A DNA stretch of 63,944 bases, counting the filler, from Polymyxa betae A26-41 (Eukaryota > Protista > Endomyxa: Phytomyxea): assembly GCA_003693705.1 (NCBI GenBank). It is 9 parts of 9 records of this genome, joined end to end, with 100 filler letters (N's around TTAATTAATTAA, not from the genome) between each part and the next. Parts side by side here need not be neighbours in the genome. Positions count along the whole stretch, not along the records: positions 21,573 to 33,132 come from RBZT01000185.1; positions 33,233 to 44,011 come from RBZT01000239.1; positions 44,112 to 48,871 come from RBZT01000604.1; positions 48,972 to 53,484 come from RBZT01000652.1; 5 more parts are not named here. One strand, written 5' to 3'. How positions within the stretch are numbered: position 1 is the first letter of the stretch; each line of letters opens with the position of its first letter. The notes beneath the pieces are model-generated. The model had not been told where the DNA came from, did no database searches, and was given only the letters and a program-made list of their open reading frames with translations. A program made the position numbers and the translations under genes. Positions 6,095-49,333 of the stretch are shown piece after piece.

Positions 6095-6100
6095 AGGGAT

Positions 6101-21572: not shown

Positions 21573-21819
21573 TCCCTGACAGGGTTGTACCTCTCTCCCG
21601 AATGTTCGCTTGTCTTTGCAGCGAAACTCCACGCAGCTATATATAGAGGCAAGTGGGACTCTTAATCTGTTAGACGGGAGAGGGTTTTGAACTGGAATGT
21701 GTTTGAAGAAGTGTTTTATTTGATAGCATGCAAGCGGAAGACAATGCTTCCGGTTGAATTAGCTTGAGTCAACGCTATTGATATCTCGAGATTGATCTAA
21801 CAGCGCTCATATGCTAACA
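21573..21819 (-). mobile_element. Copia-type 5' LTR (21819-21668, 152 bp) + tRNA-Lys-half PBS (21667-21654), truncated by the gap
   Basis: TGTTAGCAT...TCTAACA, then GATTAAGAGTCCCA. Near-identical reverse complement of 43696-43942. Confidence 0.88.
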
Positions 21820-21827
21820 CAGGGAAA

Positions 21828-21900
21828 GCCGACATAGCTCAGTTGGGAGAGCGTACGACTGAAGATCGTAAGGTCGCGTGTTCGATCCACGCTGGTGGCA
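21828..21900 (+). tRNA. tRNA-Phe (GAA)
   Basis: Cloverleaf with D-arm GCTC/GAGC, anticodon arm TACGA-CTGAAGA-TCGTA, T-loop TTCGATC and a T6 terminator. Acceptor stem has one G-U pair and one A-G mismatch. Confidence 0.9.
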
Positions 21901-22606
21901 TCTTTTTTGCATCTCCCTCGAACATACAAAAGTGCTTCTAGCTGCTGTTGAATTTGCGAATGGTTTGGTGTCCAATTCATCTTCTAGTGCCACCAGTATC
22001 GCGATAGCGAAACAGTCGGCTATGGTCGGCTCTGTAGTTGCTGGAACTTTCTCCCGCAGTTCTTTTAACTGGAGCGTTCATATTTACCTGTTGTGATGTT
22101 TTACGACCTACTATATAAAATGCAATTATATTGTGTTCTAATTGTCTGTGTCCATCGTTTGTGAGATATGACCGACGAGAGAGACGGATCAAGCAAATCG
22201 GACTGCAACCAACAGCTCTTACGTTATCAGAATCATTTCAGCATTAGCCAGATCTCGAAGTTTAAAAATTTGATGGAGCGTCATTGAAGCAAACAATGAC
22301 CAAATCCGACTCAACCAAATACCGCAGACATATTTCCATAATTTGGGTAGATTGCATGAAATCGGCAGATCGTACAAACTGGTAATTCGCGCATAGGATT
22401 CCGAAATTATCCAAACCGCAAAAAAGCCATGCCTGTTCGAAAACTGAATTGGATTGGATTCGACTAGTTCGCTGACTTATGGTCAACAGGCGGCGCTCTT
22501 TTCGAAACGCATGGCTGGAAAGTTTAAGCAAATTGCCCAAATAGATTCCAGAGCCCCTAACTAACGATTTCGGGGCGTCACAGTAATTCACCCGTCTGCT
22601 CGAAAA

Positions 22607-23620
22607 CTACAAAGGACCAGCTGCCTTCCAAAACTCTATTTCCTGTTTCATAGAGAAGTCCGCGGTGCTGATTTCAGTTAGAAATGCGATAAGACCAACA
22701 ATACAGATTTCGATTATGCTGAATATGTATTCCACTCGAGCTTTCTTGTTCATCGAAACTGTCAGCAAGCCCTTCATTCTGTCGTGAACATATTCCTTGA
22801 CTTCACGATCTTCAGTATCTAATAGTTTGGGAATAACATCACCGGGATATTCATATGGACAGTCTAATAGACGATCCAGGATAGCTCGAGGAGCTGCATG
22901 CTTAACCGCTGCTTTGATTAATTCCCCCCGATGCAAACGCATCCCCTTGCAATCGAAATCGGCATATTGCGCTAGCAGATTAAACGTATCGAAATCTCCC
23001 TTCGTTAATGCGCATTTCATGACGTCGAATCCGCCACAGTAATCCGTCAGCCAATTCTGTCCCATTGGCAATTCGAACATAATACGAAGCATGTCGTGCT
23101 GGCCCTGGTCTCGGAACTTCTTGATGACATCTTCGACCCAGAATTCCGTCCACCAATTGGTGAAGAAAGGCTCGACTTTCGCGAACTGTTCGTACGGAAT
23201 CGGAATATGATAGAGATAGTGCAGGAGCGGGATTCGGACTCCGATTCGCGTCAGCGACCACAGTACTTCCGGGTCCGTCAGCAGAACCTTATCGGATTCG
23301 GAAAGAGGAGATAGGAAACCGACTCCATTCTTCACGATAGTCCCTTCGTATGCACAGCTCGATGACGTTATCTGAGAAGATGGTCGTCCAGGCCACCTTA
23401 TATAATTCATGTTTCCCTCCATCGGGAGTCTTTTCAAAAAAACTGATCGATCACGGATTGGATGTTGTCGACGACTTGAATCTGAATTCGACCTTCGATC
23501 TTCGGAATGCAGAAGACCTTGAATAGACGTTGAACAGTTGGAGTGGAAGGAACTCGTGAATATCTTCGTCTGTCCAGATAGATTCCCGGAACAATATCGC
23601 GAAATATTTCCAAATCGCAA
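22607..23620 (-). CDS. Hypothetical protein with degenerate ankyrin-like helical repeats
   Basis: 337-aa ORF. VMKCALTKGDFDTFNLLAQY and LIKAAVKHAAPRAILDRLL resemble ankyrin cores. Confidence 0.5.
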   Translation of the reverse strand: MRFGNISRYCSGNLSGQTKIFTSSFHSNCSTSIQGLLHSEDRRSNSDSSRRQHPIRDRSVFLKRLPMEGNMNYIRWPGRPSSQITSSSCAYEGTIVKNGVGFLSPLSESDKVLLTDPEVLWSLTRIGVRIPLLHYLYHIPIPYEQFAKVEPFFTNWWTEFWVEDVIKKFRDQGQHDMLRIMFELPMGQNWLTDYCGGFDVMKCALTKGDFDTFNLLAQYADFDCKGMRLHRGELIKAAVKHAAPRAILDRLLDCPYEYPGDVIPKLLDTEDREVKEYVHDRMKGLLTVSMNKKARVEYIFSIIEICIVGLIAFLTEISTADFSMKQEIEFWKAAGPL

Positions 23621-24204
23621 ACAGTAATAAAATCAGTGATTATCGCGGGACATTCAGCCTGGTCTAAATATCTGATCCACATCGATCTAGGAGGGGGTCA
23701 GGCAGGTCTGACAGCGACGACGCCATGGGAGTTGATCCCCGAATCGATGCAGTCAGCCTTGCAAGCAAATGGGAGAGATTCTCGCGCAGTTTTTGAAATC
23801 CAATGCGGCGGGCGCCAAACTTTGTGCGTCAATTTCAAGCAAGTGAATTCTCCTCATCCAAGTTTGCGCACGTCAGCGCAGTTTCCAGAAGCGCGCGTCT
23901 GGAGCAGCCTCTGGAGGCGCGAGTTTAGAAAAGTTTCCCAGTATAAAATAGTTAAAGAGTTTGGTACGCACATTTTTTCTACAGTCCAAACAATAATTTG
24001 CGAAATTTTGCGATTGCAATTGTAAATAAATGTCGCGTACTTTATGATTGAATGATTCTGCCGATAGCAAACTGTAATACGATAATGTTCCGGAAGGACT
24101 CAGATGCCATGAGTCAATATTCTGTTCACTCCATTCGGCGAAGGTGGGTCGTGTCCCAACCTGCTTGAGGCGGTTTTCTTGAAAGGTCGCACCGCTCTAT
24201 AGGC

Positions 24205-25094
24205 ATGTCCAGTGCCCAGGACAGCCCCGATCATGAATCAGGTTCAGCAGAGGATCCCATTGAGCAGACCTCATCTTACCCGTTGAATGCGATCCTGAAA
24301 GCTGTGCACTACGACCTCATCATAGGGTATCTTACTTCTGGTGACCTCGTTGGGCTCAAGGGCGCTTGCAAAACCTTCTATGAACGTTTCCGGATATTGC
24401 TATATACATATATATGATTGCTAATGAGATAAATACAGATATCAGCCAGATACAGATTCGGGATAAAGTCGCATCTCAACCTCCTGGAGCGTTTGATGGA
24501 CAGATTGCTAATTGGCTTCGATTTCGATACAATCCTGCCGCTCTCACCTACGTCTTCCTTGGTGATGGAGGATTCTATCTCGTCAGACCTCATTGTACGC
24601 TATTACAGCTCTATCAGCGTGTATGCAGGAGTAGCAAGCGTGAGGTTGAGGATCGCGTCTTCATCAGTTTTGGAGAGACACTCGATGATTGGTTCTTCTA
24701 TGATGAATCGAATCCTGTTCTGGTCGAATCAGTTTTTGAGTTAGGTCGCACCATCTATCTGGGAGATAATCACAGCGATATGTTCCCAACTGGCATCGCT
24801 CTTTATGATTGGTCTCAACATACCCAGAGCGGTATTGTCGTCCGGATTGCTCCATCGCCTGTTTGGAACATTCGGAATCCCATAACGAAGATATCCTGGA
24901 TATATGATAGAATTCGCTCTCAGTGTTGGCGCAGAGAAAGAAGTGATCTGCTCAGATCTCTGCTGAATCCAGATATTACTAATGAGGCTGCCGACACTCT
25001 GGACCATTCTGCTATGGAGAGTATTCCTTTAACACCTTCTATCACTCAGTCTGCTCTTCCGGATCAATCGAAAACATGCTGCGCTTTCATGTAG
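24205..25094 (+). CDS. F-box-like protein with C-terminal CCAFM (CaaX) motif
   Basis: LNAILKAVHYDLIIGYLTSGDLVGLKGACKTFY is F-box-like. Intron 24386-24438 (GT...CTAAT...CAG) joins the two ORFs in frame. Ends KTCCAFM*. Confidence 0.65.
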
Positions 25095-27848
25095 ATTTTT
25101 CACACTTTTAATAACTCAATACAGTGCGGGCAGTCTTAAACCGACAACTTGTCTCAATTTTATTTTGAAAAAGAGGCTGCGCCAGAGGCCGCGCCAGATC
25201 GAACGACTCATTTCCGCGATTTATCGGATCTGAGTGATAATCGAATTATGCCTCGGGTATGGCTCCTGAAGATCACGCTTCTCCTTGCCAAGAGCCTCAT
25301 AATACATATGTTGAAATGGCGAATTTTCCCGTTATCATTCGCCACCATATGAAAGTTGGAGCTGGCTCGAGGATCTCGAGCAACAAAGTTTCGTAATTCA
25401 TCAACCAGGCCACGACCACCTATACTACACGATTACAGTGTGCTGAACAGCTCATCCGGGAGAGGGAAATCTACGATTCGTGTCAATGGACTTTTTACGA
25501 AATAATCCTGTCCTCTTCTGGATCTGGTCTGGGGAATATCGTCCCTCTCATGATTTTAGCAGATTATTATGCTGCCTTTGAATCCGATCTGCTTGCGTTT
25601 CTATCCCTACTCTGCGGGTTTTTAACAGGCTTAACTTTTTCCAGAATAAGAATGTGGAATCCGGCAGCAGAATGTCTAACGCGGTCAAGGTTTCGTCACA
25701 GACAGGAAAACGCATTCAGATCGTGTTGAACAAATATTTTCGGCAATCTAAAAAGCTGGATTATATGGCATAGCGTTAGTATTAATTAGGTGTGCTTAAC
25801 ATTCGAACGAAAACGTTTTCAGAAACGCCAATCAGTAGGGATTACTCTCCTGGCATTGTCTGTCTTTGTATTGGTTTCAGATGGGTGAATCCCCAAGAAC
25901 AGATCTAATCCAATTCCGGCTCTGTATCAGGTATCTGGTAATACCGCTTTGGATGCGAATAGCATTATTTGGGATCATGACAAAAGAGGAATATTCGCAT
26001 TCCTGCAATACGAACACGGAAGTCGAATTTAGTATACAGTATGTGATAGAAGCAGGGAGACCAGAATGAGATTAAAACCCTAACAAAGGTTCAACTCTGG
26101 GTCAACCGGTGCCGGCCCTTCAATACAACTACGTTTCTAAGCACTCCTGTGCTGAGGCCTCCGAATTATCAGATGTAGGAGAGCCACTGATTCCGGTCTG
26201 TGACCCGAACGAAGAGCAAAAGGGCGACTTTGACGAAAGGCTGGATAATAGTATAATCCCATCCAATCGAGCCAGAAATTCCAAGTGCATAACCCAAAAC
26301 CCCAATAAAGTTTGAATATCCATAAGTATTTCATTTTCCTTGACCGTAATATCATTGAAATCAGCATTGATCCCTTTACAAGATATATTGGTCTTTGGTA
26401 ATGGAATAAAACGATTTTGATATTGCTGTTTCCAAGTGTTGAGATGACCTGCTTTTGGACGATTATTTAGCCGTGGCTCTTCCCATATTGTGACAAAACA
26501 GACCGAGAAGTTTCGCCACACAATTCCCCATTCTGACAATACTGCAGCTCCAGCTTGTTAATTTTTTTCGCAGTTGTATTAAAGTTCATGAATGCTCTGC
26601 AGTCATATATCTGCCGAAAACAATTCTGAAGTTGATAAGAGCGACTTTTCCACCTACTCTCGTCTCCTTTGACTTCGCATCGCTGCCTTCAAAACGTGTC
26701 AGAAGCTCACGTTAAGCAGCTTGCTCAAAGCAAGGTTTTCTAATCGCGCGCGAACTATTCTGCTAATTTGGGATCTTTAAAAAGTATGCATATGGAATTC
26801 ATCCAAAAAATCAAGAATCCAAAAATCAAACAAGAGCTCGTAATCGCAAACTAGAAGAAATGGCGAAAATGGGATATCCAGAAAATTTTCCAAACGAATT
26901 GTCCTCATACGATTGTAATCAACATTACTTTATCTTACAACGGCCATAACAAAAAAAGTAGAAAGATTCACTATGATGAGCTGGATTCCTTGAGTAATGT
27001 TTGCAAGAGTTGACTTCAGCAATGATTCTGCTGGCTCACCAGCAGCTGGAAAAGAATCCTCTGGAGTGCTAGCGCTCATAGAAGGGGGTAGACGCGCGGG
27101 GTTGAGAAACCGCTCACGATGCATCCGCAAAAGCACAAACATGGAATTCTGTAATTCATGTTATAATGAAATCGAAGAAATCTGCCATATCCTAGATTTT
27201 CAGAAGATTAAAATATTCGAAGTTTAAAATAGAGACGAGGATAGAAATAGGAACGGATCGCATTCAGCGGATATGATGCAGTCTGCTTAATGGAATCCTC
27301 TGCTGAATTTGGAAGCCTCAAGCAAGGTTTGGAACGACCCGACCTCTCGCCGAATCTGATGACGTGGCCTGATCATTGACTCTGAATCCTTCTCGTACAT
27401 TATCGTATTGAAGTTTGCAATCGGCAGGAATATTCTCTCATAATCAACGCAGCATTTTCAATGCCAATCTATAAAATCATCTGCACTTCCAGAATAATTT
27501 TTCCGGGCTGCGAAAGACATGCTATCCAGATTCTTCATTTCCCTTTGGAATTATAACATACTCTTTGTTAGATCTATATGAGATTGATCTCCCATTTTAT
27601 GTATCATGAGCAGACAGAGACGCAAAATCTGCTTCTTGCTTTTTTTTCCTGTAAACATTTCTGGTTTAGCCTAAGAACAGGGTAACAGATACGAGGATTT
27701 TATAAACCAGACGCCAAATTCTTGCAGGTCGGTCTTGAATCGCGGGAGACCTCCATTACGCACTTTTGTTATGCCATAGCTCCTGACAGTCTCCCATCCT
27801 GCCCACACGCAGAATTTGCCATTTCTCAATTCTCATTTCTACAGCGAC

Positions 27849-28663
27849 ATGCCACCGCAACGAGCGCGAGCTAGGCCTCCCCCTGCCGCCCCAGCGCCAG
27901 CCCAATCGCCCGCTCTGGTCGCGGCCGGGGTACCACCTCTCCCTGCCATTCGCGCTGGGACCGCCAACTTGGCCACTATTGCCGACGCCAAAGAGTACTC
28001 TAAACAAGTCAAGAGGCGCCGACTGGACCGAGCGCCGTCTGCCACCCCCGATGACATTGCCGCCGCCTTCGTATGAGCTATTAGAATTATTGGATTTTTG
28101 GCTGTCTTCCTGATGTTTCGCCTTTTCAGGTTTATCAAGTGGAGGCTGCGGTCGACCAGTCGGCCGGGTTGGCTGCCGCCATCGCTGCTGCTGTCAGACC
28201 GGTTGTTCAGCCGGCTGTCCAGGCGGCTGTCCAAGCGGCTTTTCAGCCGATCCAGAATGGCCTCGCCGAATTAGGAGCCCGTCTGGATAACATGCCGTCC
28301 AGAATTCGTAACGGGCGGAATGTAGCTGGTGGGCAGCCGGTCCTACCGCTGGCCAAGGAACGCACCGGGCATCCTGCCGGCCTCGTCCCGGCGGACCAGG
28401 CTCTGGCGGCATTGCCAGTGCCAGTGCCGCTTGGCACGCCTCTTCCAGCGTTGCGGTTTCTGCCGGTCGGCGGCGTGATGCTCAATGCTTTGCATCGTCT
28501 CACGAACAGGCAGATGCAGGACTTGGAATGGTTCTATAATATCAATTTAGGTGAGTGTTCATTGATAACATCAATAGAAAAAATATCTCAAATGTCATGG
28601 AAAGTCCCCCAGGTCCCAGTCGGCGGACGGCGAATGGCGCTGGAGCGGTACTTTGCTTCTTAA
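27849..28663 (+). CDS. Ala/Pro-rich protein, Mug135/DUF1773-like C-terminus
   Basis: In-frame intron 28071-28129. SRIRNG...VLPL...LHRLTNRQMQDLEWFYN resembles the fungal DUF1773 pattern. GC-rich island. Confidence 0.6.
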
Positions 28664-29089
28664 TAAAACCATCTCTCTATCTACCCACCAACTATTTGCA
28701 TCAGTCATGGCTTCTATCGTCGTTAAATAAGCTTTTTTTAATGGCATTGAGAATGGTTGTATGATGATAATTAAAGCATTTCATATTATTTTTGGACCAA
28801 ATTTTAATTTGGCGTAAATATCTCGAAAATTCTGTATCAACTTCATATAATATAAGCGAAAATGAATGCTCTTACATTTGGCTAACCGTATGTAAGGAAT
28901 TTGAAAAAAGCAATCGTTCAGCTCGAAGCTTGAGTTCGGTGGAACAATTGCAACTCATCTAAGCAGTGAATATAGCAAAGCAACGGCATTAGTCAATTTC
29001 AGGAATTTGAATTTAGACCAGGAGGTGGCCTCACGAAGCTGGATCCTGACTTCCGGAAAGTATGAAGCACAGATCGTCATTTGGCTTCG

Positions 29090-29200
29090 AGTCCGAATCT
29101 CTCGATTTCATCTACGAGTTCTTTGTTGATAACGAATTCTATCTCGTCAGATCTCATTGTACATTATTACAGCTCTATCAGCGATTAAGCAGGGTTATCC
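29090..29200 (+). pseudogene. Paralogous fragment of the 24205-25094 gene
   Basis: FFVDNEFYLVRSHCTLLQLYQR versus FLGDGGFYLVRPHCTLLQLYQR. Confidence 0.75.
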
Positions 29201-30632
29201 TGGACATCAGAGAGAATTCGTTATCCGTATTGGTACACAGAAAGGAGTGATTTGCTATTATCTTATCCAATTCCGGCTTCTTATCATGTACTTTGTAACA
29301 TCACTATATGAATGGCAATAGGGCTATAGAAAATTGGAATCTAACAATAAGAAGGATTCTCGCATTCCTCTTGAAAAATATCTCAAATATCTTCAAACAA
29401 AAGATAGTTCAATCTGTGTCCTTATTGTATGCAGCCGCCATCGCTCTGGATCACAGATCACATTATGCACTATTCCGATCCAGATTCGTGTGAATATCGT
29501 TACTGGTCCAATCGCGATCAATGACAATAAGAGCATCTGTTTTCGGATTCTGCGACTAAAGAGGTGATTTGCAATCGTCCGCAAGATTTTCTCACAAGAC
29601 AGTTTTGTTCATTCTTAGGGTTTAGGGTTTATCCATCGTCAGTTTAATCTCTGATAAGAATATGCATATTATTATTCAGATCTAATATTATTATCCAAAT
29701 TTGGATACAGAGAAAATCGTCCGTCTTCAGCATCATGAGAATCTCTGCAGCTTTCTGAATCAAGCAGTGGATAATCCGATATCTTCAGATACTGCAACTA
29801 CCACGATCGCCGATGTCTGATGACCATAATTGAAGCAAATAACATAATTTTAAGGATCGCATTCCGTCCACCATGGCCGAGTTTGAACAACAAAAAATCC
29901 AATTCTGCTACTGAAGATCATCAGATTCATCACCGGAAAAATCAGCCAATGCCAACGTAGAGGTTTCGTCCTCAGCAAGAAATTCAGTCTGAAGAGAAAC
30001 TCGAATTAATGAAGAAGATTCAGAGCGCCTCAGTCAACTCGTCAGCGTTTCCTGCTACGGATTCCATTTGTACAGCTTCGCTTTTGGCCCTGTTCCAGCA
30101 TCGCTCTGCTCCCGAAAATCAGAAGGTCTTTAGTATGTCGAAAGTTTCAAACATTCAAAAATCCAAGAAACCGAGCCAAATTCAGCGCAAAGATTGACTT
30201 TGTTGATAGCTCCAAGAATTTGGCCTCAAAACCTTTCAAACATCCTGAAATGGAGGCCGGCTCTGCTGCCTCTAAACCTAAAAAATGCTCGTTCGCGTCG
30301 CGGCCTCCTGCTGTCATCACATCCTGGGGCCAATTTCGTAACAAAACTGTAACAAACTGGACACTTTTGGATTTGATGAAGAGGAAAATTATCTCCGTTT
30401 TAATCAGCGACAACCGTTTGTAGGGCAAACTTCAAGTACACTCGGGACGCCTTCGAATTGACAATTTCGAGATCAATGGAAGGAGTTCAGCTCCGAGCGA
30501 AATAGGCATGTTGTCGTCACCGCATTTTGAAGATTGAAAGGGAAGTTGACCTGTCAATCCGAAAGATCATGGAAATAATACCAAAGGTGGCAAACAATTC
30601 GGTTTTCATCTTCGATTGAAGAAACAAAAACG

Positions 30633-30680
30633 TTCCGATACGGGGACTCGAACCCCGGTCCTCAATGTGAAAGACTGATA
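30633..30680 (-). pseudogene. 5'-truncated tRNA-Glu (TTC) pseudogene
   Basis: Anticodon arm to 3' end almost identical to 32424-32471; D-arm and 5' acceptor strand missing. Confidence 0.85.
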
Positions 30681-31138
30681 AATATTAACTTTTTTTTTGA
30701 AAAACTTTTATCATTTCGGTTGTTATCCTGTGATTCTCATCGATAGCAGATTCCGCTATTTTAGTACATACAACCACTATCATGAAATTAACAAGTTCTA
30801 AATGGGTGGTCACGCTGATGGCAAAGTTTTCTGAAACTGTTCTTGTTCTCTTCATCCACTTTAACGACCAGGAGTGACAAATTTTTTTATTGTTTGCAAT
30901 GATCATAATATTCCAGCCTGTGCCAAAGCCATACTTTCGGCATTACGATAAGCATGGTTGTGGCGCTGTTTTTACGATATGGAAACCACCAACTGTGACT
31001 TAGGCACTTAACAGGTTGGTTGCGGGCAGTCCGCGGTGCAACCCGCTGCCTGTCCTGCGCACTGGGGGGCGACCCCAAACTAAAGTGCACCACCCCCTTA
31101 ATCTTGCCATACTGCAAACCACAACCACCCGTCTCATC

Positions 31139-31507
31139 ATGTCAAAAGATGGATTCGTGTCTCCTGATGATGCGCCGATTTTTAGCCTCAGCAATCTACC
31201 AAGTTTGTCGGCACTAGCAGGGTTACGCCCAGGAGAGAAATCTGAACAGACCACTGTGATGTTCGGATTGATATGTTCATCTATTGCAAGTTTACGAGAG
31301 AACTCATATATTGGTCTGAACGTGGCAGAGCTCGTCTCTTCGGTCATTTGCATCTTCCTGTTATATATGATCGCCTTTTCTAAAGCCAAGAATCTTTTCA
31401 GCGACAAATGGAAGTTCGCCCAGCAGATTGTTTGCTACGTCTTCTATGTGGCTGCTCTAATCCTCGAGTTCATTCAGAGGAAACAATATCAAACTCGCCT
31501 CAAGTAA
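31139..31507 (+). CDS. Small membrane protein (2-3 TM), paralog of the convergent neighbour
   Basis: ATG at 31139; hydrophobic segments; aligns with 31700-32128. Confidence 0.7.
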   Translation: MSKDGFVSPDDAPIFSLSNLPSLSALAGLRPGEKSEQTTVMFGLICSSIASLRENSYIGLNVAELVSSVICIFLLYMIAFSKAKNLFSDKWKFAQQIVCYVFYVAALILEFIQRKQYQTRLK

Positions 31508-31699
31508 TCATTCACTACTTTACATCATGATAATACATAGCTCCAAAAACTCACAAAACGTCGAACAAAAATAAGACTGGTGGCATTCAGTTTTCAGTTG
31601 TACAATACAAATTCAGCCTCAAGATAGGAAAAAATCTTTCAAAAACTGCAATTTTTGTTTATACAGATGTACTTTTTATGGTGAACTCCACGAGCGCGA

Positions 31700-32423: not shown

Positions 32424-32495
32424 TTCCGATACGGGGACTCGAACCCCGGTCTTCAATGTGAAAGACTGATATACTAACCCCTGTACTATATCGGA
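32424..32495 (-). tRNA. tRNA-Glu (TTC)
   Basis: 72-nt cloverleaf TCCGATA...TATCGGA-A, anticodon loop CTTTCAC, poly-T terminator. Confidence 0.95.
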
Positions 32496-32502
32496 GGATT
32501 TC

Positions 32503-33132
32503 TGTTTTGACAGCGTAGCTCTCAAATATTGGGCATCCGGATAGTAGTAAAATTGGAAGTGGAAGTGTATTGATAAACGAACCGCCCAACCTAGTGGATC
32601 GGGTCGAGAATAACTCTGAAACTGGGTGTTGATGTCGTACTTATCCTATTACGCCCCTTCGAAATCAAGGTCCATTTCTGCAGTTGATTCGGCCGAAACA
32701 AGTTTGGCTCGGTGTTTCTGGAATAAATGCTTGCCTAATGGCTTAGTCAAGATGTCGGCAGTCATATTCTGCGTTTCGCAATAAACAATCTTGACTTTTC
32801 CGTTGTGAACTTGATCACGCAGAAAATGATAGCGTAAATCAATATGCTTGGTTCGTCGATTCACAGCATTGTTGTTCGCGAGCAAGATAGCGCTTTGATT
32901 ATCTTGATAGATCGCCGCCGGTTTACTTTCGCCGTCCATCAGTTCTTTGTGTAGATTTGAATCCAGATCGCTTCCTTGCTGGCATCACAACAGGCCATAT
33001 ATTCAGATTCGGTGGTTGATAGCGCCACTGATTTTTGCTTGACGGAACGCCATGAGATACCGTTACTGCCCATTAGTGCGATCCAGCCAGTAGTGGACTT
33101 CCGATCGGAGTTGTCGTCGGCGAAACTGCTGT
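32503..33132 (-). mobile_element. Copia 3' end: RNase H, PPT and inferred 3' LTR (32651-32503)
   Basis: DRKSTTGW, SWRSVKQKSVALSTTESEY, DNQSAI, RTKHIDLRYHFLRD, ADILTKPL. PPT GAAGGGGCG, then TAATAGG...AAAACA. Confidence 0.9.
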
Positions 33133-35583: not shown

Positions 35584-35630
35584 AAAACGATTCCAATAAC
35601 TGCTGAAAACGATTCCAATAACTGCTGAAA
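35584..35630 (+). repeat. 22-bp tandem duplication AAAACGATTCCAATAACTGCTG x2
   Basis: Direct repeat read from the sequence. Confidence 0.85.
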
Positions 35631-36699
35631 GTTAACAAATACAGCCCATAGCCCTTACATATCTTTTTAACGACAATGTCGTTATCAATAAAACCGCCAG
35701 TGTCGTTATAGAGAGGGAGGACTGTAGTTACAATATTATTTGTCGAGCATTCTCTCTTCTTAGCATCTCTAAAATATGTGCTGTTGCCACGGAGCCAGGG
35801 ATGCCTTTGGTGAAGGGGGAGTGATTCATGCAATGGAGAGTTTGCTACTTCTAATCGAAAGCTGCAAGCTTAGTAGCTTACAGTGCAGTCAAGGTTCACG
35901 GGGGACTAAGGAACCTGCCGCAATCGATCAGGAACCGACACAGTTCGCTGATTGGAAGCTCTTGAAGAATCACTGACTTTGATACAGCACTCGACAAGAA
36001 AGATTTATGGCCGGCAAACATTCTAACTGCTGCATATGAGCACGGATATTGTATATTCGGAGATTGATGATAAGCTGGGTCACCAGAGGAGGAATCTTGG
36101 AGGAATATAATAGGATACATGGGTTCGAGTCCTTTTGAGCGGGTGTTTATCCTACCTTGTCGGGATTCTTCTAGGTCCTATACCGGAAGGGCCGAGCGAA
36201 GGTACTATTCTCTAACAGGGTGAAATACTGCCAGCTCTGATAAATAAATCAAGCGGCTTGTATTTGTTGGATTGAGAGAGAGCGAACGAAACACACGCTG
36301 TTTGATTTAGAAAATGGAGAGTGAGTGCTTATTCTTGGACGTATCCGGCTGGAATCGCTACTTGAATCGGACGCAGTGGCAGTCTTGCTGAAGTGGCATT
36401 CCTACTGAGGATGAGCGTCCTGGAAGCCTGGATATATGGCCCGGTTTTTATAGGGACATTGCTGACGTAGCTGCCCATGACTGAGGATGAAGTTGCTCAC
36501 GTGTCATGCCGCGGCGGACTTGTGAAAGAAAGCTAGCCTGTGTCAATATTATGGGCACTATATTGACTAAGCTCCGATGAATCGGAAAGCTCGTTATATT
36601 GAAAATGCTCCGATGAACCGGAAGCTCTCCGAGGTCCGAGCTATCTTATCCTCCGACTCTTGCTATATATCTATCTAATATATTCATTCTGCATTCATC

Positions 36700-38480: not shown

Positions 38481-38879
38481 TTGCTCAAACGCGCAAATAA
38501 ATAAATCCTGCAAGAAATAAAAGATGCGTCACTGCACACAAATACTGAAATTTGCGATAAACGCTTTTTTTTCCCAATGTAAAGGCAATGTTTTTCAGAT
38601 AAATACTCGCTCTTTATACAAATGTATACGGGAATTAGAGCGTCTATTTTTACAATCGGCCTCTAATTTCTGGTCAGCTCATCAAAAGAAGCGGATTGCA
38701 AAAGAAATCTGCCAACGCGGTGCACTGATAATATGTTTGCGAAAAAGGTCAAAAAACCGAGTTCCTGAAAAAGTCTGCCATCAAGCATGGTATGGTTTTA
38801 TAGAAGGTATTTTCTACATCTACGTACCATGGATCGGAGTTGCTCACGACATTAAACAAATCATTCAATTAATAGAGCA

Positions 38880-40130
38880 TATTTCATGATTATGAGAACA
38901 TATACTGGATGTATGAGATCAACTCAGACCTCTTTATTATACTCAATCTCGAGATTTCTCCTTCTTCAAGACAAATTAGTACCGATTGTGTCTTAACCGT
39001 GATAAAAGCCAATCTCATATGGGATCAAATTTGGTTGCAGCGTAGACGATTGGACACCTTTTGGACGCGTTAGATCTGCTATATCAAGAAACGATAACAA
39101 AAGGTTTCGATTCTGGAATTCATCCAGAGGAAATCGTAGATTCCGAGACCCTCGAGGGACTTAGTACGTTCCACATATATAAAGTGAGACAAAAATGGAG
39201 TAGCGCCAAAACGGAGAATCTATCCCAGAAAATCGGCAGTGCTACTTAGACCGATTGAAGTCTAATCAAACTGTCAAAAAAGGAAATATCGCTCTCACGG
39301 GCACAGCCGCCATCGTATTTTCTCCAACTATGAATCTCACGACCTGCAACATTCAAACAAAACAACCCTAATCTCAAAAATGTTGTTTTTCGATAAGAAA
39401 CACAAATTATTGCCATACAAACGGGTTTAGATACAGTGCTTCCACAAGAACTTGCTGGGCTGAAGATTCATCTATTGTCAGATTCACTCTCATGCATCCA
39501 GCAACTAGTCGCCCTTCCCTACAAATATAACTATCAAACGCAGTTGTTGAAGACGTCGCCGAAAAATTAGCTCAATTAGCAAAAAACAATTCAATTGGAA
39601 TGCATTTAATACCTAGCCACACAGCAGAAAAGATTACACAAAGCGAGGAAATTGACGAACTTGCAAAACCAGCAGCTTTTCCCTTCATTCAGATTGATGC
39701 TAAAAAGGCGAGAAACAAAATAGGCTCTTAAATATCATGAAAGGAGATTTATACATCGTCGATTTGCAGATTATCCTGAATGGACTCATCTCATAGAATG
39801 TCTTATCAAGGATACAGAAGAGCGTATGGACATTAATAATATTCTTCTCAATAGACTGTAAAGAGCCCGAACAGGACATTCTCGGGCTAGAACACATCTA
39901 AAGAACATAAAAATGAAAATGGGAAAACATATGTCGAAACTGTAAGCGATATTGAGATCACTGTAGAACATCAACTAATAAAATGTAAAAACAAAAAACT
40001 CAGCTAAGGCCATTTCGAGACAAAGGAGTTAGAAATCAGAATCTTTTCTGAATCACTTTATATAGTCACAGAAAATTTATAAGCGAGTTCCTCTCCTGCA
40101 TAGATAACAATGGACGATATATATAACGAT
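38880..40130 (+). mobile_element. Degenerate LINE 3' half (post-RT region, RNase H, CCHC finger)
   Basis: MRTYTGCMRST; IHLLSDSLSCIQQL; HLIPSHT...EEIDELAK; RARTGHS...CRNC...TVEHQLIKC across frames. Confidence 0.75.
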
Positions 40131-40844
40131 CTACATATAAAGCTGGACATCCATTAGGGGAGTAGTGCTGTGAGTTAAAAGTAAATGGTGTCGAGCCAAT
40201 GTTGGATTGGGCGGGTATTTCCTACCTTATCTGGACGAACCTCTCTTAGGTCCTTCCAATAGGGCCGAACGAGATCCATAGATTAACATTAATGGGTGAA
40301 ATGATAAATCAATGGCTCCGAAGTAGGAGCCCTGATAGTGCTTTTGCTTTCATAGATTTTGATTACAAAAAGATTTACAAACTTAAAGCAGTGAAAATGC
40401 GTCCAAATGAAGGAGCAGAGTTGATGCTGGTTAATTGTAAAGTAAATGAGAGAAAATTTATTTGTTACCAAAAAATTACATTACAATCCTTCCGAGCACT
40501 GTATTTGGATGGAGATTCATTTTGCAACATTGAGAAGAAACTCCCTCTGGCAAACGAGATACATCATGCTAAAAGAAGACAGAAAAAATAGCAAAAGACG
40601 ATTTAGTGAGCTTAACGGCGTTATCATAGCTTAAGAGTTGGCGCCATTCAAGCGAATCGGGATCAATTCTGAGGGTGGCGAATTGCGAACTCCGACGGAG
40701 AGACGCCCAGCGAACGTCGCGAGCGAACTCCACCATCCGCGAGACGGTACGTCCGAACGGGGCGTACCCGGACCGAACTCCGATCCACAGAATCTTTAAG
40801 TGGCTTATGTTTGTCCGCCATCGCGCTCTCTCTCTCTATAGTCG

Positions 40845-41012
40845 TCCACATCACCCCATCGCCCCATCGCCTTGCCCCTTAGAGGCCTCTCCATCACCCC
40901 ATCACCCCGTCGCCCCCATCCTTAGAGGCCTCTCCATCACCCCCATCGTTAGAGGCCTCGTCATCACCCCATCACCCCATCGCCCCAAACCCTTAGAGGC
41001 CTCTCCTTCATC
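40845..41012 (+). repeat. C-rich minisatellite (TTAGAGGCCTC x4 with ATCACCCC/ATCGCCCC units)
   Basis: Directly visible upstream of ATG 41018. Confidence 0.85.
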
Positions 41013-41017
41013 ACACT

Positions 41018-42031
41018 ATGAGACCTCCTGGTGTCCCTCATTGGACAGAAGAGGAGTGTGACTTCCTGCAGGCGTTCGTCCCCGAGCATGGCCATAACTG
41101 GGTCCATGCGGCGCGCCAGATGTCCAACAAGTTCGGCGACCGACGCCCGTACGGCGCCGACATGATTCGCAAGAAATGGCGTCAGATCTGCCTGAAGAAC
41201 GGCGGCGAGCCGCCGTCGACGCCGGCCAAGGCGACGCCGACCGCCCGACGCCAGAATCTGAACCTGAACTGGACCGAGGTCGAGGAGGAAGTCCTGATCT
41301 CCCTCGTTGACGAGCATGGCGAGAAGTGGCCGACGGTGGCTCGCGGGCTCGTCGACCGCCTCGGTGAAGTTCGAAAGTACTCAGCTCGGCTCGCGAAGGC
41401 GAAATGGGAAAGCATGCCTGAAGGACGGCGCGCGCTGACGTTGGCGGCGGTGCCGGAGCCGACGACGACGACGCCCGGCTGGGGCGAAGAACATGACGAG
41501 TATCTGTCGATGCTGCAGACGATGTATCCGGACGACTGGCAGAAGATGTCGGAGATCTTTGAAAAGCGATTCGAGGCGGTCGACCCTTCCGTCGATAATC
41601 TCAAGCAGCGCGCGAAGGCGATCGAGATGCGCAAGCCGAGTCCGTCGTCCAGGCGGAAACGCGTCGAGCTCGATTCGTCGTCCGATGATATGAAGACTAT
41701 TTCCGAACCGATTCCGAAGAAACCGGCGCCGGCACCGAAATCGCCGAAAACCAAACTGAAGGCAAAACCGAAACCATCGCCTTCACCAAAGCCTAGAAAA
41801 CAAAGTACTTTTTTCCCTTTTCTTATTCTTGTTTCGTTCTTTTATCTTTTGTCACAACTTTTTGCTTTTGGTTAAGTTCGGATTTTTATCTGCCCTTTAG
41901 TTTTAAAATCTCGGAAATCGATAACAACTACAGCAGTGGCTTTCGCACCGAAGGAAGGAGAAGACAGCGGCGCCGCGGCCGTCGAACAGCCAGAAGCTCG
42001 GCCTCGATCGAAGAGCTGCATCGTCCAATAG
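41018..42031 (+). CDS. Triple Myb/SANT-like repeat protein with C-terminal CaaX (CIVQ)
   Basis: Three repeats WTEEE...HGHNW, WTEVEE...HGEKW, WGEEHD...YPDDW. Intron 41805-41900 gives an in-frame last exon ending RSKSCIVQ*. Confidence 0.85.
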
Positions 42032-43626
42032 CTGGCTTCAATGCCTCACCCAAATCGATAGCCATAAATTAAATACAATTGTTTTGTTATCTTTAGAATC
42101 CGAATTATTATTGATAAAACGTTGGTATCTTTACAATCCGAATTATTCTTGAGAAAACGCGAAACCAGCTGCTTTGATGAAGATGGGTTTCGTTGAAATT
42201 CCCCATTTCTGCTTTCAATGATGAATATCTAAGAATAGCAAATTCCGCTCCCTATTGATTAGTTGAAAACAATGTGAGATTTGCAGATTTCGCAACTTTC
42301 CGAAAAGTTCTGCAACGAGATTGTTCTCGCATCAACAAAACACACGAAGCTGGGAATGTTTTGGCATGGAAACAGCAGATTGGCAACGATTTTATCAACG
42401 ATGTTCGGAAATTGCTGGGATGACGCTCAGAGCGCTTTAGTTACTCGCCAATAAGCACAAGGTTGATCGTAAGCAAAAGCGGATTGGGCTTGAGATAAAT
42501 GGCTGTATACAGACAGCAATTTTTGGAATACTTTACAAAAACACAGAGCGAGTCTATGATCCACGCCCTTTTCGGATTTGAGTACCTTGCCCGAGGCAAG
42601 AGCACTCGAAAAAAGTGAAAAAATAATAGGTCTTGCGTGCGGCAGCTCAGATAGAAGGAAAAGGATGAAAGCTTCATATTTGTTGGAGTTTCACGGGACC
42701 AACTTATGCCAACCCCTGAGAACCATATAAGTTAAAGCACTCGAGCAAATTCCGATTGACAAATTGATTTCACAACTCTGGAGTAGTCTCAATGCTCAAT
42801 ATTTCTCATAAAATTACACACGAACGTGATGGCAGCTTCGTCCGGAGTCCAGTAGGACTTAACCATTTGCAACGACCCGGACTCACGCTGCAACGAAGTT
42901 CTGCTCTCAGCCTTTGTAATTAGGCGCGGCATTCCGTTTCAGCCGACACTCTTGAAAATCGAATATGAGCGCTCACTAAGGTCTGGGCTTCTCAATACTC
43001 AGTAAGATTGCGAGAAGACTTTCTGCAATCAAGTGATCAATGAGCGCTTTCTTATCACAATTGCTGATCCTATGCGCTTCAAATCTATTGATCGCCCGGC
43101 TGGTGTTGTTATCGAAAACGTCGTCGGGAAACCGAGGCGATTTAGACGCACCGCTTAAAATACATACAAAAATATTCGAACTTTGGAAGAGAATCAGTGA
43201 AAAGAATTTGTTGTTTTGTGAGATAGCCACAGTTTGTGAAAAGGTCGTGATTGTGTGGAGCTCTCAAATCGCTCTTCCGGATCTCAACCAATGTATTTCG
43301 AACTATTCGGCAGTCATTGTAGAGCATCTGTCTCCCTGTAACCTGGCAGAATTTCGATAGCAGTTTATGAGCCAGCAGTCGAATATCTGGTTTAAGGTCG
43401 CTTGCTTCTGTCAAGATAGGGATTGGCTTAGTTTCTTCTCGTCATGCAATCATTGTTCATAAAGAAATTTGTTCTTTAACAAAATAAGCGATCGCGATAC
43501 TCTAAAATGATCGAGATGCGGAACGGATATAGAGTTCGGTTATGTACTTTAACCTCCGAGACATCATGGTACAGGTTGGTTTGAATAGAGCACATCTGCA
43601 GTGGACAGCTCGAAAGAAAAAAAGAA

Positions 43627-43683
43627 AGGCCCTGCGCAGACTCGAACTGGAACCTGCGTGCTAACGACCTGCACTACAGATCC
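43627..43683 (-). pseudogene. tRNA pseudogene lacking the anticodon arm (Gln-like)
   Basis: GGATCTG-TAGTGCAGGTCGTTAGCAC...GTTCGAGTC...CAGGGCC followed by T-runs; A and B boxes retained. Confidence 0.6.
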
Positions 43684-43695
43684 GTACCGACTTTT

Positions 43696-44011
43696 TATTA
43701 GCATATGAGCGCTGTTAGATCAATCTCGAGATATCAATAGCGTTGACTCACGCTAATTCAACCGGAAGCATTGTCTTCCGCTTGCATGCTATCAAATAAA
43801 ACACTTCTTCAAACACATTCCAGTTCAAAACCCTCTCCCGTCTAACAGATTAAGAGTCCCACTTGCCTCTATATATAGCTGCGTGGAGTTTCGCTGCAAA
43901 GACAAGCGAACATTCGGGAGAGAGGTACAACCCTGTCAGGGAGCAGGAGCTGGATTCCAACTGAAAGAGCCAAACGTGAGCCGCAGTTGAGAAGAAGTCG
44001 TCAAGTTCCGA
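43696..44011 (+). mobile_element. Copia-type 5' LTR (43696-43847) + tRNA-Lys-half PBS (43848-43861), truncated by the gap
   Basis: Second copy of the element at 21573-21819; about two substitutions seen in the LTR. Confidence 0.88.
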
Positions 44012-44111
44012 NNNNNNNNNNNNNNNNNNNNNNNNNNNNNNNNNNNNNNNNNNNNTTAATTAATTAANNNNNNNNNNNNNNNNNNNNNNNNNNNNNNNNN
44101 NNNNNNNNNNN

Positions 44112-45019
44112 CCGCTCCCACTGTCACTTCTTCAGCACCAACTAGTGGCTCTTCGACCTCGGCGTCACCGAAGGAGATTACGACGGCCCCGGATGCCACC
44201 TCGTCTGTGACAACGGCTCCATCTTTAAGCTTATTTTCGACTTCGGCGTTACCGAAGGAGGGCACCAAGACCCCCTCTGCCACAACTTCAGTGACAACGG
44301 CTCCATCTTCAAGTTCATCTGCACCGTCGTCGCTGGCGGCTTCAGCAGCTCCCAGTGTTACTTCCTCAGCGCCCGCTACTCGATCATTGACCACAACGTC
44401 ACCGAAGAACGAGGGTACGACTGCGCCGGCTAATGTCGGGACCCTGACTGTCACCTCGTCGGTGACGGTGGCTCCATCTACAAATTCTTCGGCGACTACG
44501 CCTCCTCTGATGACTGCTGCAGCTCCTAACTCAGCACCTGTCACTAATTCCTCGTCAACTACATCAACCGAGATGCCTGCGGCCGCTCCGACTGCCATCT
44601 CTTCCAAAGCAGATAGCAGCTCATCCAGCACTACCATCCCCACCGCCATTTCAAAAGCGAATACAACTGATGCTGTGTCCTCTTTAGCGTCTAGCGCTGC
44701 CATCGATGCGATTCATAAATCCAAAAAGCTTCACCCGAAGCCGTATCCGCATGTACCTATAAGTTCTGCTCCCAAATCTAAACCGCATCCTCCACAAACT
44801 GATTGCCCTCAGCCTGTCAAAATACCGTCTTTGCCTCATCCGGCTTCGTCTAATCAGTTTAACTCTTTAAACCATTTGTCTCCAGAACAGATTCGTTCTG
44901 CCATCGCGGCGTATACCAAATCGCCCTCAACACAAAGTGATGATGATAGTTCTTCCCCAGCAATGCTCATTTCAGTTGTATGCATTGCCCTCGGTGTTGT
45001 CATTCATTTTATACTGTGA
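44112..45019 (+). CDS. Mucin-like Ser/Thr/Pro-rich surface protein, probable GPI anchor (5' partial)
   Basis: Repeats SPKEGT..SVTTAPS; C-terminal DDDSSS plus hydrophobic tail MLISVVCIALGVVIHFIL*. Confidence 0.85.
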
Positions 45020-45394
45020 ATACAAAATACTTGTTCATTTTCAGATAACGGTGCCCAATGTCCTTCTACTCGTGCAAGGTTTACTCCAGGAACTTCAGCG
45101 CCTGTCGTATGACCATAATGGCAGGAAGCGCTGCCATATCCAATATCCCGGTAATATGTGACGCTATCTTATTTAACTAGAGAGGATCTACAGAGTCAGA
45201 GTATTCAATTTCGCCGAAATTATTCATAATAGAGCGTTGAACGATACTCCCGAGTGTTTTGACGAATGAGGGTGGCATGTAATTGCCATGAAACATGCTA
45301 TTGAAGATTTCGTGCTTTTCATTAGCAGTGTTTTCTGTTTCATCATATCAGCAGTGTGTATGAAAAGCGCAGAATACACTGTTTTATAGTATGA

Positions 45395-46567
45395 TCATAT
45401 GTCCTCGGCTTTACTTCCTAGACACACCTGCCTATATTTCAACTCTTGGCGGGTTACCACGAACACCATCGAGCTAATGCCGGCGCTGAAGAAGCACCAG
45501 GTCGATGCAAACGCATCGAACCACAGCTTCACTGAGACGAACAGGCTGGCGGCGATCGCGATCGCGATTGTCCGATTATGTTGGACCTAAACGACGATGA
45601 AGGGGAGTACGACGCTGTTTAATATAGCCATATGTACCGAACTGAGGAATAGAGAACCTACAATAACGGCCACGTACAGAACGGCGGCCAGCAAGGCCGG
45701 GATTCGATCCGAATTCCAAAACATATTTGGGAATTCAAACATGTACACGATTCGCATCTCCTGCAGGCTAACGTGGATCGGGTCGTTTGTGATGATTGCA
45801 GTTAAAAGATAAGCGAAGAGAAATTGGCCTAGATGACTTTCAGGTAAACTGAATTTTTCTGTTTGTGTCTGTGCCAAATTTCATCCGAATTTGTTGGATT
45901 TCAATGGTTGAACTGCTCAACTTTGAAAGACAAATAATTGTAACTTGGAACTGAATTGCAAAAAGAATTTTGATGACAATCTTACCGATTATTGCCAGGG
46001 TGAAGATGATATAGCGGCGGAGCGAGGTCGCCTTCGTTTTTGTCCACGTTAGGAAGTCAGTGGTATGATATCTGGCTAACTCCCCGACCATAACATCATG
46101 CGCCTGATTCTGCAGATTCGTCATTGGTTTGGGCCTGTGTAACTCCAGCAGCGCCAATGTGAACGGGATAAAACCCGGCCAGAACGGGTAAGCTGCAGAT
46201 GACAACGTTTATTGCATTTCTTAAGAAGGCAACAATGCTGCTGGCTTCCGCAAGCAAACTCAACGTAAATTAAGGCACAACAATGTTGGAAGCATCGTAA
46301 CGTTTCAAATGGTTGAAAGCAGTCCAACAACGTACCAAAGAACGTGAAACAGCGAATGGCGTTCTGATTGTTCAGATGATTGATCCAGACGAAACCCTCC
46401 GATATCTGTTGTGTTCCGAAGGCAACGGGTATTGCGGCGAACGGCATCATCGATAAGCGATGTCGCCATGATAGCGATTGGGACAGGACGACTTGCGCGA
46501 TGTTAGCGAGCCCGATTACGACCAGTACTGTACCGAGCGTGAACGATGCCGCTGCCGAGAAACACAT
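45395..46567 (-). CDS. DUF6629-like multi-pass membrane protein, spliced
   Basis: MCFSAAASF...IPVAFGTQQISEGFVW...AYPFWPGFIP...AFASTWCFFSA; GT-AG introns link the pieces. Confidence 0.75.
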
Positions 46568-47460
46568 CGTATCTTTTGCAATACGATTATGGGCACGCGA
46601 ACCAACACAACAATCTCTCACTTCTTGTCAGCCATGAGATCATTGACGTTCGCGTCTAAAGGCTTATTGACAGGCTTCTCTCGGACCGATGGGTTCTGCA
46701 AGACGGATTCTGAATCACGAACTGAATCCCTGGCTTCAACTTCGTCTTGGAATCAATTTAGTACTGGAGGTATTCAGATTTATATCTGACTTGTAAAGCT
46801 CAAGTTGGTGCTTCATTAAATATGGCAACATGTAATGCCCTCCATCTCTTACCAAGGCAGGACTATCTACTAGATATCGGAGGTATTCCACTGAATATCA
46901 AACCTCCATGGTCTGTGGTACTTCCGAAGATAACATTCAAGCTATCATAGTCAATCAGAATGGAACGTTGCTGCAATATCACAGAACAAGATCGCATAAG
47001 ATCAGCATCATCAAATCATGGTTGTTTTCCGACTTCGGTGATTGTTCTAGGAACTTCCAACAGCTTGCAATAAAAACCGAAAAAGGCGACCTGTTGTAGG
47101 ATGAAACATCTGTCCACCGCCTAACTCCTAACGGCGCTTATGGGTTGAAGGGGCTAGATGCTGATCAGCTCCAAAATTAGACGTTCTGTAGGAGCACTGG
47201 TTGGTATGAAGGTTTTTGAAATTCTACCATTTCTGCTAGTAGAAAAAGGATCGCCATTCAACAAACTTCAGCGAGCCAGTCGAATCCAACCCAGTCGTAT
47301 TATTGAAATTCTTTCAACCTCTCGATAACACAATCTCCAGGCCACATTGAGCTGTTGATTGTTGCAATGTTTTGTATTATAATGAGACACACAATCGATC
47401 TTAATATCCAGCTTAATTCTCCGGCTTTGCAACACTCTTCAAGTTCTCATTTATTTACTA

Positions 47461-47988
47461 ATTAAGAGTCCCTAGTTCACGTCACCATAACCACCTCTGC
47501 ATTTATAATCACCAGACTACGTAGCTTTGACGATTGTCCTCATTGGAAGCGCCGCATGGTCGTGGTCTTTTACAGGAATCGACTTCGATCACTGCATTAC
47601 TCAAGATTATTCCACTTTCGGTCCCCTCGAAGCACAACCAGACCTTTCCAGTAAACCCGAACTCAACCGAACCGATCCTGGAACACGATGTTTACTTGAA
47701 CTTAATGTCGACGATAATGTCCTTCCACACCTGAGATCGGAGCCAACCGCCCACTTATATTGGGTAAACTTCATAGTATTTATCAGGAAGAATAGATCGT
47801 CAAATTTCTATCGACTTCGGATCCTTTTGAGCTGTTCTCAAGAAAATCGTTCAAATCAGGAGTACGTCTCTCTGATAGAATCTCGTGCTAGAGAATTGAA
47901 ATGTGCTGGAATTGATTCAAGCAGCGAATTCATCTCAGCATTAATGCTGTGCAATTTAGACTGCGCCCGCCTGACAACCGGTAGTTAG
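47461..47988 (+). pseudogene. Copia gag remnant preceded by tRNA-Lys-half PBS (ATTAAGAGTCCC, 47461-47472)
   Basis: RLRSFDDCPHWKRRM...QEYVSLIESRARELKCAG is UBN2-like. Confidence 0.65.
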
Positions 47989-48765
47989 GGTTTGTTATCG
48001 CAAAGTCAGTTCTTTCTTGTTTTAGTTGATCCTGAAACCCACCATCAAAATTTTTGACAAAAACAACCAGACACTCTCGCATTTCTCTGCCGGTCTAGCT
48101 TTTACCTGTCTAATCTTTTCTGTAGGCCCGTTTATTCCAATTTCAGGTGTCAAGACCATAAGCGTTACAAAGCTCTGCCATTTTTTCCTCTCCCATCATC
48201 TTAAAGAATTCCGACGAACTCGCTGAATGTCCTCTTTTTTTATTGAAACAGTTTACTGGCGTTTTGCTCTTTCATAGCATCTGCTCATGAATTGTAGCGA
48301 GAAACACGCTAGATTTCGCCTCCTAAACAAACCCTAAGAACTACTTCAATATGACAGCCGTCATTGGATGGGGCCAGCAATCAGCTCATTTTTCAAATAC
48401 AAATTACGAAATGAAATTTGTATTTAAACCCAGTGGATTAGGTCAAAGAGTAGCCGAAGCTGGTTGTCGATTCAGACACGAATGCAACAACCAGAGATGA
48501 AATGCAAGTTGCGTATCATCTACAATACAGCAGCTAATGTCTAAACGCATCTGAGACCATTAAACTGATTTCATCATAGCCCAAAAATATTCTTGTATGC
48601 GTAAAGATTTAGATATCAAGCTCATATATAGCCTGATGAATCAGTAACCCGACAATCAATGCTGATAAACCATTCCACTACAGATTTATTCAGCATTGGA
48701 AGGGTCGTTTAAAATGTCGATGAAGTTCACGTTGAAACAATCGGCATTCTGTTTGCAAAAAGAAA

Positions 48766-48838
48766 TGCCTCGTATGTGACTCGAACACATGATCTCTCGC
48801 TTACTAAGCGAGCGCCTTACCAACTTGGCCAACGAGGC
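48766..48838 (-). tRNA. tRNA-Thr (AGT)
   Basis: GCCTCGT/ACGAGGC acceptor stem, CTCGC-TTAGTAA-GCGAG anticodon arm, TTCGAGT T-loop, T-run downstream. Confidence 0.95.
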
Positions 48839-49333
48839 GATAGCTGTTCTGTCAAGGAAGATACGCCACGANNNNNNNNNNNNNNNNNNNNNNNNNNNNN
48901 NNNNNNNNNNNNNNNTTAATTAATTAANNNNNNNNNNNNNNNNNNNNNNNNNNNNNNNNNNNNNNNNNNNNTGTGAGCGAAATCAATCGAATCCGTTATG
49001 CTCAAAGCACGTTGAAAAAACTGATTTTAGTTGCAAATCTTTATCGGAAATTAATCTGGGCCTCCCGGAGATATAAATGGTCTTGGAAAGGATTCGCTCA
49101 TAAGAAAATCCGGTTTTGGATGTGTAAAGGGGCGGGTACGCTATTGACTCCAGCCTGGACTGTAACGTTGTCCGATGTGAATCTTGTAGATGCCGTTTGT
49201 CGTGTAGCACGTCTCTTACTCATAATGAAGCTCTCTAAGTTTTAAGGAAGTCGTAAGTAATGTAGTAATTTCAGAATGATAAGATTTTATTTCCTATCTA
49301 AAATTTGTAGTAATAAAGCATGAATCACGTATC

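Follow-up and report, generated by a model that had tools for sequence, protein, structure and literature searches.

Two LTR retrotransposon families beside tRNA 5' ends in the protist Polymyxa betae suggest targeted insertion at Pol III starts

How do the ends of long terminal repeat (LTR) retrotransposons come to lie within a dozen base pairs of tRNA 5' ends? The question is raised by a 63,944-nucleotide stretch of DNA (the window) from Polymyxa betae A26-41 (assembly GCA_003693705.1), in which two retrotransposon families, here called A and B, adjoin two tRNA genes and one tRNA pseudogene. A first-pass annotation had read these positions as the work of Copia elements directed to genes that RNA polymerase III (Pol III) transcribes. 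Our analysis indicates that both families were probably placed 8–12 bp upstream of tRNA 5' ends through targeted insertion at Pol III starts.

LTR ends and tRNA genes in the window

The window consists of nine contigs of 2.6–12.7 kb, joined by N50-linker-N50 spacers, with a guanine-cytosine content of 42–49% and many transposon pieces. tRNA genes were called over its whole length with ARAGORN and Rfam, which gave three intact genes (tRNA-Phe, tRNA-Glu and tRNA-Thr); relaxed ARAGORN output consisted of hundreds of noise calls and was discarded. Nine public sequencing runs from four studies contain window DNA and were compared as assembled contigs, four of the nine at the LTR-A locus and three of the nine at the LTR-B locus; individual runs are called X1 to X4 below. 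The features at the three loci are as follows.

21828–21900, + strand: tRNA-Phe(GAA), called by ARAGORN and Rfam
21668–21819, − strand: LTR-A copy 1, a 5' LTR of 152 bp, TG...CA, U3 end toward tRNA-Phe, gap 8 bp
21655–21667, − strand: primer binding site of copy 1, complementary to the 5' half of tRNA-Lys through the anticodon loop (CTT)
21573–21654, − strand: start of the family-A internal region (copy 1), ending at the contig edge, no open reading frame (ORF) seen
43627–43683, − strand: tRNA-Gln(CUG) pseudogene that retains the A box, B box and T run and lacks about 15 nt in the anticodon arm
43696–43847, + strand: LTR-A copy 2, a 5' LTR of 152 bp, TA...CA, U3 end toward the pseudogene, gap 12 bp
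43848–44011, + strand: start of the family-A internal region (copy 2), ending at the contig edge, primer binding site at 43848–43860
32424–32495, − strand: tRNA-Glu(TTC), called by ARAGORN and Rfam, one of about 9–10 copies by distinct 3' flanks
32508–32651, − strand: LTR-B, a 3' LTR of 144 bp, TA...CA, U5 end toward tRNA-Glu, gap 12 bp
32652–33132, − strand: end of the family-B Copia RNase H and polypurine tract, ending at the contig edge, in two frames with a shift near 32951

Re-measurement gave the same gap of 8 bp between the LTR end at 21819 and tRNA-Phe at 21828 as the annotation had reported, and the same 12 bp between the near-identical LTR at 43696 and the degenerate tRNA at 43683. 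The 152-bp LTR-A has the termini TGTTAG...CTAACA, and its two copies are 99.6% identical over 245 bp, with 2 of 247 positions differing when the terminal TA of copy 2 is included. A primer binding site directly follows both copies; both are therefore 5' LTRs with U3 toward the tRNA. The degenerate tRNA at 43627–43683 received no call from ARAGORN or Rfam, and its 3' part is present at about 6–7 times single-copy depth. Since a loose contig end in run X3 (at 43649) carries an intact anticodon arm with anticodon CTG, we identified it as a tRNA-Gln(CUG) pseudogene. Separately, run X3 is deep over the family-A LTR and internal start (43717–44011) and zero on the flank, a pattern like that of an RNA library.

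At tRNA-Glu, a Copia 3' LTR had been placed with its end at 32503, 7 bp from the gene. The succession of RNase H, polypurine tract and LTR was recovered, and the boundary was moved: in run X2, 32508 is the common start of two contigs, one shared and multi-copy, the other separate and single-copy, and the shared LTR contig stops at 32651. LTR-B therefore spans 32508–32651, with a gap of 12 bp in place of 7. LTR-A and LTR-B have no common sequence, in agreement with the annotation. An X4 contig that matches up to 32501 and then diverges, and that may represent either a paralog or an empty site, was left uncounted. The 3' half of a tRNA-Glu also lies at 30621–30680 (− strand), its 5' half swapped for an A/T-rich run; this junction is real, as the same junction was found in an X2 contig. 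An LTR-like sequence at 36108–36217 (+ strand) starts with TAATAGG like LTR-B, ends with CTAACA and has a B-box-like motif at 36122; no tRNA adjoins it.

The proposed fourth case, at tRNA-Thr, was not confirmed. The features there are as follows.

48766–48838, − strand: tRNA-Thr(AGT), called by ARAGORN and Rfam
48845–48871, + strand: LTR-like stub, unproven, that precedes the contig end and has TG 6 or 11 bp away from tRNA-Thr

A TGTT or TGTC start 5–13 bp from a random point is expected in 9% of cases by chance, and within the window the 22-nt stub does not recur, its best match elsewhere being 15/22.

The three remaining gaps (8, 12 and 12 bp) involve three tRNA types on two contigs. Measured against random placement of the 10 listed LTR ends within the window, three of the four tRNA starts, the pseudogene included, lie within 15 bp of an LTR end (p ~8e-9), as do two of the three intact genes (p ~5e-6); the 15-bp threshold was set post hoc, the window was picked by a reader for the pattern, and two of the control ends are merely LTR-like. 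With the threshold, the window choice and an extra control end all taken into account, the result is still nowhere near chance. The other LTR or LTR-like ends (seven listed, plus the Copia 3' LTR at 2896–3098) belong to two Copia elements in contig 1, a chromodomain Gypsy and a Copia element at 51541 with a related primer site, among others. Because none of these ends has a tRNA beside it, the placement is family-specific within the window. The 5-mers adjoining the LTRs at the three loci differ (CAGGG, AAAAG and AAACA), so the site looks to be set by position and not by sequence. Insertion in both orientations, as first claimed, was found across families, with A facing the tRNA by U3 and B by U5, and not within a family.

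Affiliation of the two families

The claim of two Copia families stood firmly for one of them. The RNase H pieces of family B are 50–86% identical to the Copia polyproteins P0003–P0005, which carry RVT_2 with the integrase before the reverse transcriptase (RT), and they group with these proteins in a tree with support 97/91 (bootstrap not settled). No Gypsy-type RT or RNase H was found in family B, its RNase H being Copia-type; the polypurine tract is followed by the LTR, and the element ends in TA...CA rather than TG...CA. On this coding sequence, family B is demonstrably Copia. For family A, no coding sequence was seen, and tblastn with six Copia polyproteins gave no match within the 164-bp internal stretch; its membership of Copia is likely and is judged by primer-site type. 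Read from the sequence, the LTR-A primer site gives, as its reverse complement, the 5' half of an anticodon arm whose anticodon would be CTT, so the primer would be a half tRNA-Lys. Copy 1 has an LTR with TG...CA ends and the half-tRNA site adjacent to it, as expected for Copia. Among plant elements, half-tRNA priming is described as exclusive to Copia (PMC6317226).

A different account would keep the precise placement as known Gypsy behavior: family A would be targeted without being an autonomous Copia, being either non-autonomous or mobilized by an integrase of Gypsy type, and the one copy of B would have landed at an open site by accident. It draws on the lack of an ORF in the 164 bp that follow LTR-A copy 2, on the lack of common sequence between the two LTRs, and on the observation of family B beside a tRNA at one locus only. 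We consider this account unlikely, because half-tRNA primer sites were restricted to Copia in the plant survey, because the family-B gap of 12 bp agrees with the family-A distances, and because a Copia-like gag start (BLAST E ~1e-5 against a local collection of 177 proteins; Pfam match to DUF4219 with E 0.15) comes after a primer site at 51659 that is one base from that of family A and reads as anticodon CTG. This primer site belongs to a Copia element at 51541–51860 (+ strand), consisting of a 5' LTR, the primer site and the short gag start, without an adjoining tRNA. On the − strand upstream of its LTR, a 100-nt stretch ending in a T9 run gave no credible Rfam match (best E 0.92), and the LTR was therefore counted as not Pol III-adjacent. 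An isolated 12-nt match to the family-A primer site, at 47461–47472 (+ strand) behind a decayed LTR-like stretch, is a probable relic.

Relatives of family B were sought with P0004 as query, which had 678 matches; among the 120 listed, seven others showed 49–67% identity and the rest at most 41%, and no close match carried a name. The polyprotein of family B itself was absent among 23 protein matches. In the six of nine clade members measurable by motif search, 112–128 aa lie between the end of the integrase core and the RT, against a median of 180 aa in 150 other Copia proteins (3/150 with at most 135 aa); a short P-[LM] motif following the SH3-like domain is common to these six. The compact integrase C-terminus with this motif, as seen in the relatives, is a candidate targeting surface only, and the measured relatives are not known to adjoin tRNA genes. 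Loci of these relatives were found in neither the viral nor the genome contig collections; the metagenome collection held one 1838-bp contig at 47% identity, which ends before any LTR, and the LTR-A and LTR-B patterns had 0 matches in metagenome, genome and viral collections. P0004 and P0005 are 67% alike and both lie on 21757-bp contigs, probably one contig.

Public contigs and the weight of the evidence

Contig tables of loose ends, in which 23 of 70 ends were listed at the LTR-A locus and 17 of 26 at the LTR-B locus, were merged. Contig depth serves as a rough guide to copy number only, and filtered records leave holes, so a stretch of zero depth proves nothing. In run X2 the identical core of LTR-A has a depth of 468.6 against 14.7 for single-copy sequence (~32x), and LTR plus internal sequence ~15x; LTR-B has ~11–13x, and its internal part ~7x on one near-identical 3572-bp contig. 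Both families are young and multicopy, with about 30 and 12 LTRs by depth.

One single-contig loose end of X2, among the 23 of 70 listed, carries a tRNA-like 5' end 11 bp from the U3 end of LTR-A. The tRNA-like end was matched by eye (G1, U8, G10, A14, G15, G18, G19); over the whole window, both strands counted, 1.62 occurrences of its 19-nt motif are expected. Loose-end consensuses at 43701 and 43704 (two contigs each) were tRNA-like at ~12 and ~2 bp and were left uncounted as mixtures, with agreement of 0.68 and 0.75 and with 197 and 7.9 occurrences of their motifs expected over the window. Two head-to-tail LTR-A pairs at single-copy depth have 5-nt spacers, CCATT in X1 and X2 and TCATT in X1, X2 and X4. 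They are not circle junctions, because neither spacer is primer-site sequence. Since a second insertion at the exact site would leave one 5-bp duplication between the copies, the pairs would favor a fixed target. The narrow placement at tRNA 5' ends claimed by the annotation thus has three window loci with an LTR end within 20 bp, one further contig locus and two 5-bp-spaced tandem pairs in its favor.

A broad preference or a survival bias would explain the close cases as the noticed tail of a Ty1-like wide window or of tolerated random insertion. That the window was picked for its tRNA–LTR pattern speaks for such a reading, as do several LTR-bearing contigs with long unbroken flanks. However, the Ty1-like spread over about 1 kb was not found: all four measurable gaps, the X2 contig included, fall at 8–12 bp in this small sample, none in the window falls between 20 bp and 1 kb, and insertion over a wide window would not be expected to give tandem pairs spaced by exactly 5 bp. 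We therefore regard a broad preference as quite improbable, more so than the account of family A without an autonomous Copia.

Misassembly of repeats near contig ends, with tRNA genes and LTRs wrongly joined, is very improbable. All three loci lie at most 700 bp from contig ends, and positions 43652–43672 had zero depth in all four runs compared. Filtered records can account for such holes, however; the spacer is distinct at each of the three loci, the pseudogene carries its own deletion, and the X2 contig, from a separate assembly, has a further tRNA-like/LTR junction, with a gap of 11 bp.

Several observations count against targeted insertion or narrow the base on which it stands. The evidence comes from the window loci and the listed loose ends; X1 and X2 are possibly the source of the window's own DNA, and the X4 study is not flagged as such. 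Two of the LTR–tRNA junctions (at the tRNA-Gln pseudogene and at tRNA-Glu) are bridged by none of the public contigs listed, and no loose end occurs at the LTR-B end among the 17 of 26 listed. No element has both ends, so the target-site duplication is putative, and a third LTR-to-LTR joint (X1, X2; single-copy depth) leads to a diverged LTR over a 7-nt spacer. Ten contigs leave the LTR-A U3 end with a median loose length of at least 255 and a near-random consensus (agreement 0.47–0.48), one diverged LTR-A lies inside single-copy contigs of 6–8.5 kb, and a 5689-bp single-copy contig runs into the LTR-B U5 end. Moreover, two tRNA-Glu-like copies are unbroken for at least 255 nt upstream, so not every tRNA gene is occupied. 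The long-flank contigs may represent flanks on the far side of an element, tRNA genes that are single-copy, or copies inserted without targeting. Because only one outer end per element can face the tRNA, strict targeting would also yield long flanks; the data are compatible with a large untargeted share without establishing one.

The window holds further elements apart from these loci. Two more Copia elements lie back to back at 1–2740 and 2896–3098, with gag on the − strand and a decayed RT–RNase H and 3' LTR on the + strand; the primer site at 673 is presumably of half-tRNA-Met type. A decayed chromodomain Gypsy spans 5828–12724, with LTRs at 6095–6309 and 11152–11356 that are 90% alike; part of its gag/protease region is duplicated, and a second chromodomain remnant lies near 12387. 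At 63405–63944 (− strand), an NDC10_II ORF (E 1.7e-25), likely of Crypton type, stands directly before a 5'-truncated Copia gag–integrase fragment. A search with a PQ-loop protein found its own record and one match at 31% identity, and ESM Atlas matches were of mixed taxa. An intron-broken gene at 46121–46627 (− strand) matches DUF6629 (E 1.2e-5), and short interstitial CCCTAA/CCCTAAA telomere-like runs occur at 3436, 5033–5055, 11713–11750, 29621 and 61420.

A putative mechanism and known targeting systems

With targeted insertion as the preferred reading, we propose that the integrases would be tethered to the Pol III initiation complex, namely TFIIIB as positioned by TFIIIC at the A and B boxes, and that their cuts would fall at a nearly constant position around the start of transcription. 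The cut may be staggered by 5 bp, which would make the 5 bp adjoining each LTR the target-site duplication, and repeated insertions at the same site would produce stacks of LTR, 5 bp and LTR. Because a young LTR-A adjoins the more decayed Gln pseudogene, in which both boxes are kept, the promoter complex would be the mark recognized, rather than a working tRNA. The pseudogene may, instead, have decayed after the LTR-A insertion.

The closest likeness is to Ty3 of Saccharomyces cerevisiae. Its site is narrow at the Pol III start, 0–20 bp from tRNA 5' ends (PMC7175516), with a distance of about 15 bp (PMC5006619), slightly longer than the gaps of 8–12 bp found here; insertion involves a 5-bp duplication and TFIIIB tethering (bioRxiv 10.1101/2021.07.27.453949). 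Ty3 also inserts at the tRNA relic ZOD1 (PMC5911963), which the pseudogene site in P. betae resembles. Ty3 is, however, a Gypsy element with a C-terminal domain and a vestigial chromodomain, whereas family B is Copia with relatives that have a short integrase C-terminus. DGLT-A of Dictyostelium, Tca8/beta of Candida, Tj1 and Tyl3/Ylt1/Tyl6 likewise have LTR ends 6–33 bp upstream of mature tRNAs, as known from their genome distribution (PMC5911963, PMC5006619), and all of them are Ty3-gypsy, unlike family B; indeed, so is every precisely placed LTR element in Table 1 of PMC5911963. The Copia elements Ty1, Ty2 and Ty4 insert upstream of tRNA genes as here, but over a window of about 1 kb (PMC5911963), whereas the gaps measured here are within 5 bp of each other; the Ty1 integrase binds Pol III subunits (PMC5911963). 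PMC5006619 and PMC7175516 agree in assigning precise placement to Gypsy and broad placement to Copia.

In priming, the Copia lineages Osser, Bryco, Gymco-II and Bianca resemble family A in that the tRNA pairing with their primer site is cleaved within the anticodon stem, with the difference that they use half tRNA-Met or -Ile and family A matches the Lys(CUU) arm (PMC6317226); no tRNA-gene targeting is mentioned for them in the accessible part of that paper. A description of a Copia element with Pol III-start precision was not found in the accessible literature; most subscription papers and Repbase lay outside the search, and an earlier description is possible. The yeast elements Ty1, Ty2 and Ty4 use full-tRNA priming, whereas family A has a half-tRNA primer site.

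Considering these comparisons, we lean, by a little over even chances, toward the view that Ty3-like targeting of Pol III starts, precise nearly to the base, arose independently in an unnamed Copia lineage whose integrase C-terminus is compact, and that its LTRs stack up at the same tRNA genes with 5 bp between them, and that a second, half-tRNA-Lys-primed Copia family in the same genome does likewise. So far, the accessible literature connects precise insertion of LTR elements at Pol III starts with integrases of the Gypsy group, a precision that the structure of Ty3 explains by a Gypsy-specific chromodomain. If our view is correct, Copia insertion at the same site would be a separate invention that uses a different binding surface, and it would break the usual division into a broad Ty1 and a precise Ty3. 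It would also offer a small integrase for studies of safe-harbour insertion.

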